Shown: positions 35,511 to 40,096, counted from the stretch's first letter. The stretch is DNA of 64,000 nucleotides from Longimicrobiales bacterium (GCA_041690395.1 JAWLHJ010000003.1:544001-608000); one strand, 5' to 3'. The notes: a model not told the origin generated them from the sequence alone. Made by a program: numbers and translations.

Positions 35511-36965
35511 CTACCACCCGCCGCCCGAGCCCCCGGGCCGCACGAAGTCCGTCCCTTCCCAACACCGGTCCTCCCGGTACCCGGGGATCTCGGGCCGCTC
35601 GCAGAAGCGCTCGGCCGACTCGGGACGCAGATCGATGAGACGGTTCAAGGCACCGTCGGTCTTGTGCAGGTCGAACGAATCGTAGAGCACCCCACCCGTG
35701 GTGCGGGACTCGTAGACCAGCCGGTCCCACTCCACCCGAATCGTCTGATAGAGCTGCGTGTCCTCACCGATCCGGTCGAGGACCGCCCGCGCGTCGTCGG
35801 AGGCGAAGTACATCTTCGGACCCGAGACCGAGACGACGTACATGGTGCCCGTGTGACCGGCCCACGCCATGGTGCCTTCGAAGAGGTTGGACCCGCGCCC
35901 GTAGGCGTGGTCGTGCCCCTGGAGCACCAGGTCCACGCCGTACTCCTCGAACAGGGGCTGCCAGTGCTCCTGGAGCGCGGGATTGTCCCGGCCGCGCGCC
36001 ACCGAGAAGACCGGGTGGTGGAAGGTCACGACGGTCCATCGGTTGGGATTGTCGGAGAGCAGACTCTCGAGCCACCGGGCCTGGTGCTCGACCTGATCGG
36101 GCGCCTCGTCGTAGACCGCCTCCACCGAGTTGAGCGCGATGAAGCGCACCCCTTGGTAATCCACGGAGTAGACGGTGCCTTCCATCCCGTCCGGTCCGTT
36201 CGGCGGGAGCGTGAACTGAACCGGCCAGTGGGGCGACAAGCTCCGCCTCTCCTCACCCACCTCGTTCACCTCGTCCACATACTCGTGGTTCCCTGTCGCG
36301 GGCAGGCTCGGGATCATTCCGTGGAGCCATCCCCCGGCCTCGAACCACTCGCCCCACTCGTCGTCGTGGCTCCCTTCGCGCAGGTTCACGAGGTCGCCGG
36401 CGAAGACCATGAGCCGCGCTTCCGGCAGGTCCAGGGCGGCCTGCCGAATGGTGCGGGAGAAGTGTGACTTCACCGCGTTTTGCGAGTCACCGAAGTACAG
36501 GAACGAGAACGGCGTGAAGTCGGTCGACGCGGTCCGGAACTGAAACCACTCGCTCCACGTCCCGGCGCCACCCACCCGGTATGCGTAGAGCGTGTTCGGA
36601 CGCAAATCGCTGAAGACCACCGAGTGGTGATGGGCCACGCCGTTCTCCGCTTCGAGCGGGGTCGTGGTGCCCGGTACGGACCGGGCGCCAAGGTGCAGCC
36701 CGGGCGTGGCGGTCGCGACCGCGATCTCTGCGACGGCGGTGGTGACCCCCGTGCCCGTGCGCCAGGTCACCGCCTGCGTACGGGCCGGGTCGCCGACGAA
36801 GGTCAGGACGATGCGGTCCGGGTAGCCGGTCGGTTCGTATCGGGGCATGCCGTCCACGACGAGCGTGTTCTGGGCCTGCGCGGTCGCCGCGATCAGGAGG
36901 AGGGGGAGAACGGCCACCGCCACGGCACGAGCGAAACCGACGGGTGATGCGAGCTGGTACGGCAT
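35511..36965 (-). CDS. Secreted purple acid phosphatase-like metallophosphoesterase with FN3 N-domain
   Basis: Signal peptide; GDSQ, AGDLV, GNHE, FHHP, GHDH calcineurin-like motifs. Confidence 0.9.
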   Translation of the reverse strand: MPYQLASPVGFARAVAVAVLPLLLIAATAQAQNTLVVDGMPRYEPTGYPDRIVLTFVGDPARTQAVTWRTGTGVTTAVAEIAVATATPGLHLGARSVPGTTTPLEAENGVAHHHSVVFSDLRPNTLYAYRVGGAGTWSEWFQFRTASTDFTPFSFLYFGDSQNAVKSHFSRTIRQAALDLPEARLMVFAGDLVNLREGSHDDEWGEWFEAGGWLHGMIPSLPATGNHEYVDEVNEVGEERRSLSPHWPVQFTLPPNGPDGMEGTVYSVDYQGVRFIALNSVEAVYDEAPDQVEHQARWLESLLSDNPNRWTVVTFHHPVFSVARGRDNPALQEHWQPLFEEYGVDLVLQGHDHAYGRGSNLFEGTMAWAGHTGTMYVVSVSGPKMYFASDDARAVLDRIGEDTQLYQTIRVEWDRLVYESRTTGGVLYDSFDLHKTDGALNRLIDLRPESAERFCERPEIPGYREDRCWEGTDFVRPGGSGGGW

Positions 36966-37031
36966 GGAACGCCTCGAGACTCGGGAACGGGAATGAATCC
37001 CCGAATCATGACGGCCCATCCCTAAGACGGA

Positions 37032-37058
37032 GTCACGTTCCGGTCACGGGTCGGCAAC
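37032..37058. promoter_or_regulatory. 11-bp periodic direct repeats (Pho-box/OmpR-like)
   Basis: GTCAC at 37032 and 37043, GCAAC at 37054, upstream of the phosphatase start. Confidence 0.35.
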
Positions 37059-37144
37059 GCCCCACTGGCGCTGGTGCCTTCCGAGCCCGGTTGCATCGAC
37101 GCCATGTGCCATGCCTTCCACCACCGGGCCACCTCGGGTAGATT

Positions 37145-37167
37145 TCTTCATGATTTTTTCATGAAGA
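37145..37167. promoter_or_regulatory. AT-rich perfect palindrome, candidate operator
   Basis: TCTTCATGA-TTTTT-TCATGAAGA about 30 nt upstream of ORF 37199. Confidence 0.6.
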
Positions 37168-37198
37168 CGACTCCGCGAGCGTACTCGAAAGACGTCCG

Positions 37199-37678
37199 AT
37201 GATTCTGTCCCGAAGCCGGCTGCGCCTCCCCGCCGCCCTCGTCACCTGTCTCCTGCTCCTTACCGGTGCAGGTGAAGTGCTCGGCGCGTGCTACTGCGCG
37301 CACCGGGGCGGTGAGGCCATGGAGGGGCACGGCCCGGCGCACGGGGCCGTAGAGGACGACCTTCCGGCAGCGGGCCCCCACGGGCACGGCTCCGGACACC
37401 GGTCTTCGGTGGAGACCACCCTCCATTTGGACGCGGTCGCCGAACACCCCGACGAGCACGGAACGGAGAACCCGGCGAGCAGCGCCTGCCGGGCCCTCTG
37501 TGCGCTGGCCTGCAGCAGCAACGCCGGTCCGACGCCGGACGTCACCGAGCGCGCGCCCGACCTCGTCACCTGCGCGGCCGCCGCGCCGGCTCCCGCGGTC
37601 GAGTCGATCGACATGGTGCCGCCAACGGCGCGCCCCCACATCCTTCCCCTCTCCCAGGCACCCCCCACGACGTCCTGA
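37199..37678 (+). CDS. His/Cys-rich exported leader protein (DUF2946/CruR-like) with C-terminal QAPP
   Basis: Hydrophobic N-terminus, CYCAH, 10 His, CxxxCxxxC, Pro-rich tail PHILPLSQAPPTTS-stop; precedes a TonB receptor. Confidence 0.7.
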   Translation: MILSRSRLRLPAALVTCLLLLTGAGEVLGACYCAHRGGEAMEGHGPAHGAVEDDLPAAGPHGHGSGHRSSVETTLHLDAVAEHPDEHGTENPASSACRALCALACSSNAGPTPDVTERAPDLVTCAAAAPAPAVESIDMVPPTARPHILPLSQAPPTTS

Positions 37679-37777
37679 GGCGCGAGCCGCCCCCGAGGGG
37701 GCCGCGCTCCACCCATCAGGACGCTCCGGACCGCGACGTCCGGAGTCCACCGCTTCTTCGTGGACGGGAGTCTACCC

Positions 37778-40096
37778 ATGCATTCGTGTATCTCACGAGC
37801 AGCGCCCGCGGGCGCGCGCTCCATGTTCCTGGCCTTGCTCGTATTCTTCCTCGGCGCCTCTCCGGCCCTCGCCCAGAGCGGCACGCTGAGGGTGTCGGTC
37901 TCGGACAACGAGAATCGCCCGCTGGCGAACGCGGCCGTGCGCGTCGACGGCACGCGTCTCGGTACCTTCACGAGTGGCGACGGAACCGCGACCATCTCCG
38001 GCGTGCCGGTCGGTGATCGCTCGATCACCGCGTCGCTTCTCGGATACGGCGACGAGCGCTCGAACGTGACGATCGTCGCAGGCGGCACCGTGAACGTGGA
38101 TATCGTCCTCGTCGCGGCGCCCTTGCAGGTCACGGGCATCGAAGTCTCCGTCCTCCGCCCAGACCTGAGCCCGGACGTCCGGGTCGCTGAGAGCGAGCTC
38201 CAGGAGGAGAATCCACACGACGTCGGAGCGGTGATGCGCTCGCTTCCGGGTCTCGACGCCATCCGCAGGGGTGGCCTGGGCCTGGACCCCGTCGTACGGG
38301 GTCTCCGGGACACGCAGGTCGGGGCGTACGTCGACGGCATGCGTACGCTGCCGGGAGGACCCGGCGGGATGGACACGCCGCTCTCCCACGTCGACCCGTC
38401 CGCCATCAAGGGGATGGAGGTCATGAAGGGCCCCTACGCGCTCACATGGGGAGCCGGCAACATGAGCGCCATCCGGGTCGAGACCCAGCGGCTCCCGCTG
38501 CGCGGAGCGGCGCCCGTCTCGGGGCAGCTCCGCGCCGGATACGACACGAACCTCTCCGCCACTGAGACGGGCCTGGAGCTCACCGGCACGGCCTCCTCCA
38601 TCGCCTACGCTGCATCCGGTGCCTGGCGCGAAGGCGGCGACTACGTCTCCGGTGCCGGCCTCGAGACCCCGTCCAGCTTCACGAGCGGCGAGGTTCGCGG
38701 CCGCCTCGGCATCTTCACCGGGCCCGCGTCGACGTTGACGGCGTCCGGCTGGTACCAGGGCCAGCGGGACATCGACTACCCCGGCCGTCCCCTGGACGCC
38801 GCATTCTTCGATACCTACAACGGGTCGCTGCGTTGGCAGCACCAGCCGGCCGCCGGCGTGGTCCGGTCCCTCGACGCGATGGCCTACGTGTACACCGTGG
38901 ACCATGCGATGAACAACGACGGCAAGCCCACGGCGCTGGCCAATCCGGACCGCATGCCCCCGTTCGCGATGGACATCCTGACCGTCGCCAACACCGGGAT
39001 GGTCGGAGGTCGCCTGGCCACCGAGCTCGCCCCGGGCGGTGACTGGACCCTCGAGCTCGGGGGCGACGCCTATGCGGCGGACCACGACGCGTCGGGGGTG
39101 ACCCGGAACCGCGACACGGGGATGGTCATGATGGAGCGGCTCATCTGGGGTGGCGCGCGCCTGTCCAACATCGGGCTGTTCGCCAAGGCCGATCACCCGC
39201 TCGGGCGCCTGTCGGCTTCGGGAACGATCCGGGTCGACCATGTGCGGGCCGACGCCGACTCGGCCAGCACGTTCTTCACGGACAACGCATCCGCGGAGCT
39301 GGCCTCGACGGAGACGAACCTGAGTGGCGCGTTGACCCTTTCGCTGCCGGTGACGTCGCGTTGGTCCCTCTCGGGCGGCGTGGGCTCGGTGGTGCGCACC
39401 GCGGACGCGAACGAGCGCTTCTCCGATCGCTCCCCTTCGAAGCGGGCGCAGATCGGAGCCGAGTTTCTGGGCGATCCGGGCCTCCGGCCCGAGCGGAGCA
39501 CGCAGGTCGACCTCTGGGTGGACGCCCGGTATCCGCGCTGGGCCGCTTCGGTGAACGTCTTCTGGCAGCGGATCGACGACGCCATCACCATCGAGGCCAC
39601 CGATCTGCCGCGGATGAGCGCCATGAGCGCTCCCACGGTCTTCCGGTACGTGAACGGAGACGCGCGCTACCGGGGCGCCGAGGCCTCCGGACAGCTGTCG
39701 CTCACCGATGCAGTCACCGTCTCGGCGTCCACGGCGCATCTCTGGGGCGAGGACGTGACGCTGGACGAGCCGGCGCTCGGCGTGTCCCCGTGGCGCGCCG
39801 ACCTCGGCGTCCGCTGGGAGCCCGCGACGGACGCCTTCCTCCAGCTGTCCGGCCGCACCGTGGCGAGTCAGGAGCGGGTCTCCACCACCCGCGGCGAGTC
39901 ATCGACGCCGGGCTACGAGACCGTGGACGTGCACGCCGGCATTCCGCTACCCGGCGGAGTCACCGCGCGCTTCGGGGTCGACAATCTGTTCGACCGGGCC
40001 TACACGAATCACCTGAATGCACGTAACCCGTTCACGGGCTTCGCGGTGGCCGAGCCCGGGCGCGTGCTCTTCGCCAGGATGAGCGTGCGCTTCTGA
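37778..40096 (+). CDS. TonB-dependent receptor, OprC/NosA-like (probable copper/metal uptake)
   Basis: Signal peptide, carboxypeptidase-regulatory-like N-domain, plug DPVVRG..DGM..MDTPLSH..KGPY, DHAMNN, GVDNLFDRAY..H, EPGR, terminal Phe. GTG at 37760 is an alternative start. Confidence 0.88.
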   Translation: MHSCISRAAPAGARSMFLALLVFFLGASPALAQSGTLRVSVSDNENRPLANAAVRVDGTRLGTFTSGDGTATISGVPVGDRSITASLLGYGDERSNVTIVAGGTVNVDIVLVAAPLQVTGIEVSVLRPDLSPDVRVAESELQEENPHDVGAVMRSLPGLDAIRRGGLGLDPVVRGLRDTQVGAYVDGMRTLPGGPGGMDTPLSHVDPSAIKGMEVMKGPYALTWGAGNMSAIRVETQRLPLRGAAPVSGQLRAGYDTNLSATETGLELTGTASSIAYAASGAWREGGDYVSGAGLETPSSFTSGEVRGRLGIFTGPASTLTASGWYQGQRDIDYPGRPLDAAFFDTYNGSLRWQHQPAAGVVRSLDAMAYVYTVDHAMNNDGKPTALANPDRMPPFAMDILTVANTGMVGGRLATELAPGGDWTLELGGDAYAADHDASGVTRNRDTGMVMMERLIWGGARLSNIGLFAKADHPLGRLSASGTIRVDHVRADADSASTFFTDNASAELASTETNLSGALTLSLPVTSRWSLSGGVGSVVRTADANERFSDRSPSKRAQIGAEFLGDPGLRPERSTQVDLWVDARYPRWAASVNVFWQRIDDAITIEATDLPRMSAMSAPTVFRYVNGDARYRGAEASGQLSLTDAVTVSASTAHLWGEDVTLDEPALGVSPWRADLGVRWEPATDAFLQLSGRTVASQERVSTTRGESSTPGYETVDVHAGIPLPGGVTARFGVDNLFDRAYTNHLNARNPFTGFAVAEPGRVLFARMSVRF

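Follow-up and report, generated by a model that had tools for sequence, protein, structure and literature searches.

A probable arginine-less relative of the CruR and CutF copper-sensing leaders precedes an OprC-like receptor gene in Gemmatimonadota

In two proteobacterial models, CruR and CutF, metal is sensed through a nascent peptide that stalls. Here we describe an open reading frame (ORF) that lies directly ahead of an OprC-like TonB-dependent receptor gene in a Longimicrobiales bacterium of the phylum Gemmatimonadota (GCA_041690395.1, JAWLHJ010000003.1:544001-608000; this whole stretch of 64,000 nucleotides (nt) is called the window, and positions are counted from its first letter). Judged from its sequence the ORF is likely an arginine-less form of these known leaders and not a new kind of system, and its family would extend the principle to another phylum.

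CruR (Bp2923, DUF2946/PF11162) is the leader of the cruR-bfrG(crtA)-bp2921 operon in Bordetella pertussis and acts in cis in a Rho-dependent manner (PMC9426467; here and below, statements on published systems refer to the accessible parts of the cited texts). Its CxxC and RAPP motifs are 45 residues apart, and regulation is broken by five extra residues between them, while its signal peptide is dispensable (PMC9426467). Arrest is abolished by R139A in CruR, and ApdP and SecM with AAPP are defective in arrest (PMC12992588). CutF of Rhodobacter capsulatus (cutFOG) has CxxxC, a Pro-rich tail and a stem-loop over the downstream Shine-Dalgarno sequence (SD); copper induces stalling, elongation factor P (EF-P) relieves it and the SD stem-loop melts. 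CutF requires its signal peptide, unlike CruR (PMC9973294, bioRxiv 10.1101/2025.02.05.636593). Arrest motifs without Arg are also known: QAPP of uA_RQH_Myxococcales arrests both Escherichia coli and Bacillus subtilis ribosomes in vitro, with weaker arrest for Q86A, and so does HAPP of uDF_RQH_Lachnospirales in vitro (PMC10987492).

The ORF in the window is probably a conserved cis-acting ribosome-arrest switch that keeps the receptor on at low levels of a metal, most probably copper, and off once the metal is bound. The coding features are as follows.

37199..37678, plus strand: leader ORF, assigned to an arginine-less CruR/CutF-like family in Gemmatimonadota; 159 amino acids (aa) with 10 His and 7 Cys
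37199..37303, plus strand: basic N-region, hydrophobic helix and Cys-x-Cys-x-His (CYCAH, residues 31-35)
37313..37474, plus strand: His-rich linker (residues 39-92) that differs among relatives in both length and sequence (alignment; low predicted local distance difference test, pLDDT)
37487..37513, plus strand: CxxxCxxxC (CRALCALAC, residues 97-105; Cys97, Cys101 and Cys105), in a predicted helix (92-106)
37655..37666, plus strand: QAPP codons, residues 153-156, the predicted arrest site at the end of the conserved tail PHILPLSQAPP
37778..40096, plus strand: OprC-like TonB-dependent receptor, 772 aa, with its ATG at 37778

An initial annotation of the window had listed the ORF with CYCAH, 10 His, CRALCALAC and QAPP, a spacer of about 100 nt, hairpins and a GGGAG ahead of the receptor, and all of these are present where it placed them. 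The frame is coding, since its GC content at third codon positions (GC3) is 0.85, its codon score (+0.05 per codon; the remaining plus-strand frames score -0.35 and -0.33) is the best among the six frames, and nonsynonymous differences (pN) are rare relative to synonymous ones (pS) outside the linker. In a crude count of differences from L002, a copy in the same genus, residues 1-38, 93-140 and 141-159 gave pN of about 0.03 and pS of 0.12-0.29, while residues 39-92 drift (pN 0.30, pS 0.30). Eight of the 10 His fall inside this drifting linker, and we therefore rejected the 10 His as fixed ligands. The CxxxCxxxC is the likely metal sensor according to the sequence and the model. AlphaFold predicts a hydrophobic helix at residues 3-27, which together with the sequence pattern makes the N-terminus a likely Sec export signal or membrane anchor. 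A Leu-Gly-Ala-Cys stretch might be read as a lipoprotein box, but this was rejected by eye because distant relatives keep the Cys-x-His without it. No family in Pfam or NCBIfam was assigned to the ORF, and its own genome holds neither a DUF2946 match nor a paralogue.

The locus resembles CruR in several respects. In both, the first gene is small, of exported type and separated by a long spacer (99 nt here, 162 nt for CruR) from a TonB receptor gene; both also have a Cys motif about 45 residues before xAPP (47 here, from Cys105 to Gln153), xAPP three residues from the end (QAPP stands three codons ahead of the TGA stop), and a bubble with more C than G whose 3' part holds an unstructured C/U run. 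The operons named for CruR carry the same gene classes as those found here, i.e., TonB receptors, CopC, PCuAC and AhpC/TSA (PMC9426467). Unlike CruR, the leader has QAPP in place of RAPP, after a conserved PxxLP(Y/F/L)x tail, and CxxxCxxxC (CxCxxxC in the family) in place of CxxC. It also has an additional N-terminal Cys-His motif and comes from Gemmatimonadota. The receptor is OprC-like, whereas the CruR target CrtA belongs to a cluster apart from OprC (PMC12914433).

CutF is matched by the Sec-type signal, the CxxxC, a Pro-containing tail for which no Arg dependence is given in the accessible text, and mRNA structure over the downstream SD. As in the published rules for CutF-like proteins, the ORF encodes a small protein with CxxxC, PP in the last 15 residues and a same-strand gene within 1000 nt (PMC9973294), and the signal is seen both as a sequence pattern and as a predicted helix. 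Its 159 aa are under the 170-aa rule of list A and over the 150-aa filter of the later lists (PMC9973294). The published list of 5,334 CutF-like proteins may already include members of the family; the terms Gemmatimonad, DUF2946 and arrest peptide are absent from 8,054 characters of its supplement text. The RQH peptides share an Arg-less xAPP near the C-terminus of a small exported-type upstream ORF. However, their place is upstream of sec genes and their proposed role is the monitoring of protein export, and no metal site is described for them in the accessible part of PMC10987492. No sec or yidC family was found among 77 genes downstream of leaders (scan, E up to 1e-12). The initial annotation had read the ORF as a divergent version with QAPP and CxxxCxxxC; neither QAPP nor CxxxC is new, given that QAPP arrests in uA_RQH_Myxococcales and CutF uses CxxxC. 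The concept is thus already published, and the gain lies in breadth and mechanistic detail. Our literature search found no work joining Gemmatimonadota with DUF2946 or with arrest peptides, and none on copper-related upstream-ORF arrest with NAPP or NGPP; papers on OprC and Gemmatimonadota concerned other topics, as judged by titles and the beginnings of abstracts.

The ORF belongs, by sequence, to a large unannotated family within Gemmatimonadota. A word-indexed search gave 13 close homologues, and a profile of 15 sequences matched 360 clusters at 50% identity. With a 133-sequence profile, 198 of 401 genomes of the phylum matched; the family is thus present in about half of the sampled genomes and is missed both by Pfam and by motif screens for RAPP/RGPP. 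With a profile of the subgroup, matches were limited to 4 of 314 genomes of the family. Locus searches gave one locus with the closer alignment (A3) and no usable pattern with alignment A1. Neighbours in the ESM Atlas are unnamed clusters; clusters in which 12-14% of the members bear DUF2946 come lower down and are a lead only.

Counts of tail, residues and Cys spacing refer to the best 150 of the 360 clusters, 147 of which have P-x-x-x-x-P-P near the C-terminus. The consensus is a C-terminal LP(Y/F)x(Q/N/T/L/H)(A/G)PP, where Pro at -3 is invariant, Leu at -4 occurs in 95% and Tyr or Phe at -2 in 83%. The residue ahead of (A/G)PP is Gln (52), Asn (51), Thr (15), Leu (14), His (12), Ile (2) or Arg (1). 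It is this family-wide rarity of Arg (1/147) that is unusual at the sequence level, and the natural Gln, Asn, Thr, Leu and His variants form a series for probing arrest without the arginine that is central to structural models. PP ends three residues from the stop in 105/147, and in 130/147 the tail motif follows the final Cys of the cluster by 45-49 residues. CxCxxxC is the usual Cys pattern (109/147), while CxxxCxxxC (10/147) marks the subgroup of the window. The members keep a hydrophobic N-terminus and 137 of the 150 have, within the first 70 aa, a Cys followed by His one or two residues later. Two leader-family ORFs stand in tandem, about 200 nt apart, at G182:C1:3633713-3634706 (minus strand). 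Ordinary CxxC...RAPP/RGPP leaders with weak DUF2946 matches were also found in relatives, ahead of other TonB receptors (L011:942-1298, L014:1029-1379 and L030:1004-1372), and both leader types therefore coexist in the phylum.

Genes behind the leaders were surveyed for the top 80 of 150 listed matches (256 in all), and a downstream gene was called for 77. According to Pfam, 48 of these are TonB receptors, and one each is CopC, PCuAC and AhpC/TSA; a second scan added one PCuAC fused to cytochrome c. About 21 of the 77, grouped by eye, encode one Met/His-rich protein of about 345 aa, and four are unexplained or miscalled (the L141 leader call is in the wrong frame). Leader and receptor remain adjacent in L031, L032 and L162, where the flanking genes differ. 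The initial annotation had tied its reading to conservation of the C-terminal motif and of its place ahead of metal transport genes, and the tail in 147 of 150 relatives and the TonB receptors behind 48 of 77 leaders agree with this. The conserved tail, the Cys-to-tail spacing and the position before envelope and copper genes all agree with a cis-acting leader, so that the proposal of a CruR/CutF-like cis leader for an OprC-type receptor gains support from these sequence tests.

Under the preferred reading the ribosome would pause with the two Pro codons in its P and A sites, where it would cover the C-rich run and the anti-SD strands; the SD would therefore open and Rho loading would be blocked. 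The Cys helix, 47 residues from the arrest site, would then be placed just outside the exit tunnel, and metal bound to it might fold or pull the nascent chain and free the ribosome. After release, the end of the leader would pair again with the SD region, Rho could terminate and the receptor would be off. Metal may be sensed during translocation, as the initial annotation proposed; a signal peptide is required by CutF but not by CruR. That stalling means receptor on is inferred by analogy, because the CruR target is likewise an importer. We favour SD masking as the primary layer with Rho as the second. The RNA features concerned are these.

37633..37656, plus strand: 24-nt G-free C/U run resembling a Rho-utilisation site, inside a C>G bubble (37619-37696)
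37665-37670, plus strand: leader-end strand (Pro156-Thr157 codons), pairs with 37758-37763 over 6 bp, invariant in 4/4 loci
37671-37678, plus strand: stop-codon strand, pairs with 37716-37723 over 7-8 bp, compensated in L003 and L162
37724..37745, plus strand: spacer hairpin 1, retained in L002, L003 and L162 with altered pairs
37745..37765, plus strand: spacer hairpin 2, 6 bp here, competes with the 37665/37758 helix, not conserved
37766..37770, plus strand: Shine-Dalgarno-like GGGAG of the receptor, invariant in 4/4 aligned loci and also in L165

In the consensus fold of the four close loci, an invariant CTCCC (37651-37655) pairs with the receptor SD. Invariant pairs by themselves say little. 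The stop helix, however, is 7-8 bp long in all four, and where a codon differs, in L003 and L162, the spacer differs to match (MAFFT sets L003 one column off in this helix, and helix lengths were recounted for each sequence). L165 has a different tail sequence, yet also pairs across the SD. The conserved RNA feature is thus, on comparison of sequences, the Pro-Thr and stop codons pairing with the spacer beside the receptor SD, and unlike in CutF the masking strand would be the last codons of the leader itself. The initial annotation had put forward both spacer hairpins and an upstream CTCC able to pair with the SD. The first hairpin is kept and CTCCC pairs with the SD, but the second hairpin forms here as an alternative once the leader end is covered. 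It was rejected as a conserved switch, as the best local helices of the relatives are 4-5 bp with other partners, and the conserved partner is instead the end of the leader. The region has a fold z-score of -2.15, and Rfam gave no match at 36800-38100, hence no known riboswitch.

The cost of opening the SD was computed for 46 loci, namely five close loci and the 41 of the 80 that have a clear SD and a spacer of up to 220 nt. The median cost fell from 9.9 to 4.7 kcal/mol when the ribosome footprint was removed, with a fall of more than 2 kcal/mol in 33 of the 46. In 36 of these loci, which are partly kin, the native tail masks the SD better than the mean of eight foreign tails. For the C>G bubble, C minus G is 26 in 78 nt, which is in the top 0.06% of windows of the genome; 24-nt G-free runs number 103 in the genome. 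Rho is encoded, above the cut-off. Two rho-like genes are seen, at G000:C6:148944-150191 and G000:C3:78357-79457, with 652 and 500 bits (cut-off 509). Among 79 loci, G is scarcer in the tail codons than the encoded amino acids require: CCG accounts for 28% of Pro in the tail and 52% in the downstream genes, and CTT for 28% and 5% of Leu, respectively.

This codon bias bears on a reading in which the ORF shares a transcript with the receptor but encodes a plain exported chaperone or metal-binding protein that acts in trans, its Pro-rich tail being structural. The signal-like N-terminus, the many His and Cys, and the conservation of the N-terminal Cys-x-His as well would suit such a protein. Yet the synonymous bias and RNA pairing are confined to the tail, the fixed Cys-to-tail distance matches that of CruR, and the leader comes first before several unrelated gene types. 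The AlphaFold model is also largely unfolded, with two helices in a low-confidence chain (predicted template modelling score, pTM, 0.29), and we regard a trans-acting protein as very unlikely. Another reading keeps the leader in cis and reverses the direction: only an EF-P-relieved Pro-Pro pause would be involved, prolonged by metal as in CutF, and metal would switch the receptor on. The motif has no Arg, CutF works with CxxxC, a Pro-rich tail, EF-P relief and SD stem-loop melting, and the leader has CxxxC and its 99-nt spacer in a genome that encodes EF-P. However, copper increases the stalling of CutF, which turns on an oxidase for detoxification, while the receptor here is importer-type and most downstream genes are uptake-type receptors. 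The residues before the Pro pair are moreover conserved beyond the needs of a plain Pro-Pro pause, and QAPP and HAPP arrest in other peptides. A CutF-like direction is therefore unlikely.

The receptor has TIGR01778 as its best NCBIfam match (227.5 bits, cut-off 472), and OprC (PDB 6z8y and related) is its only solved-structure match at E<1e-10. OprC of Pseudomonas aeruginosa binds copper through Cys143, Met147, His323 and Met325, and its C143A variant loses Cu(II) while still binding Ag(I), a mimic of Cu(I) (PMC8610252). Met198, His376 and Met378 of the receptor correspond to the Met, His and Met ligands, and Gly194 stands at Cys143, so that the CxxxM-HxM site of OprC is replaced by GxxxM-HxM. 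Among the best 120 of 353 homologues found, Gly takes the place of Cys143 in all 120, the Met, His and Met occur in 120, 120 and 119, respectively, and an additional plug His (His204) is invariant. The receptor also has an N-terminal carboxypeptidase-regulatory-like domain in addition to the OprC parts. The 'copper-type' label of the initial annotation is thus right as to the best match, with the reservation that the receptor stays under the family cut-off and has no equivalent of Cys143.

The missing Cys143 and the invariant His204 could point to the same cis leader answering a signal other than copper, either another soft metal (Ag, Ni, Co or Zn) or the redox state of the Cys cluster. The leader family averages 12 His per protein, His-only CutF-like clusters adjoin Ni/Co genes (PMC9973294) and one downstream gene is AhpC/TSA. 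On the other hand OprC is the best match by family and structure, the Met147, His323 and Met325 equivalents are kept, Ag(I) binding survives in OprC C143A, and the CopC and PCuAC neighbours are copper genes. A signal other than copper is hence quite unlikely, and copper, perhaps as Cu(I), is the likeliest cargo to judge from the conserved ligands. More speculatively, these could be phylum-wide arrest peptides without arginine, where Pro-x-x-Leu-Pro-Tyr/Phe does the job of the Arg and therefore Gln, Asn, Thr, Leu and His are tolerated, and which here gate a Cys-less OprC with a Met-His-His-Met site for the import of Cu(I) alone or of a different soft metal. We hold this extended form as possible but doubtful.

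Several points weigh against a copper-responsive arrest leader. The ORF itself has no DUF2946 match (gathering score 23.7); weak matches (E up to 0.1) were found in 22 of 133 family members, and only P0037 of 127 passes the cut-off (24.0 bits, over the full length of the model). The family is therefore a distant branch and not a member of the Pfam family. Arg is essential in CruR, yet it is nearly absent here (1/147), and Thr, Leu or Ile stands ahead of (A/G)PP in 31/147, which is to be read beside the arrest-defective AAPP of ApdP and SecM. Conservation of the tail is partly circular because the seeds of the family profile already had it, and related genomes are not independent samples. The receptor falls below the TIGR01778 cut-off, and the Cys required for Cu(II) binding in OprC is missing from its sequence. 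Finally, the computed switch is weak at this locus, 1.4 kcal/mol, with 1.0 for L002, 2.2 for L003 and -0.4 for L162. Masking of this SD is also stronger with foreign tails than with the native one (7.8 vs. 6.2).

If the reading as a metal-responsive cis leader is right, the leader flags candidate copper-uptake genes, including the Cys-less OprC group and the Met/His-rich outer-membrane protein. The receptor and P0159-P0278 form a Cys-less OprC-like subfamily in Gemmatimonadota with GxxxM, His204 and the barrel HxM. Named relatives of the receptor include Fodinibius and Rhodothermus proteins, and in L007 and L008, which are more distant receptors, a Cys lies two residues from the position equivalent to Cys143. 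After TonB receptors, the gene most often found behind the leaders is that of the Met/His-rich exported protein (L092:827-1861 and about 20 similar loci). Two of these proteins were tested, both gave weak PF13557 matches, and the protein is on sequence grounds a candidate TonB-independent copper channel.

Upstream of the leader, a purple-acid-phosphatase-type metallophosphoesterase is encoded divergently (35511-37019, minus strand); it is absent beside the leader in the nine related loci checked. No sigma-70 promoter or intrinsic terminator pattern was found at 36900-37900. A perfect inverted repeat, CTTCATGA-5 nt-TCATGAAG, lies at 37146-37166, about 30 nt ahead of the leader start. It is not family-wide, with one weak match in 80 distant loci, and none was seen in L162. 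In the genome it is the sole perfect copy, with one copy with two mismatches elsewhere. The repeat is degenerate in L165 and kept in L002 and L003 even though the upstream genes differ, and its sequence looks like a transcription-factor operator added to the leader switch.

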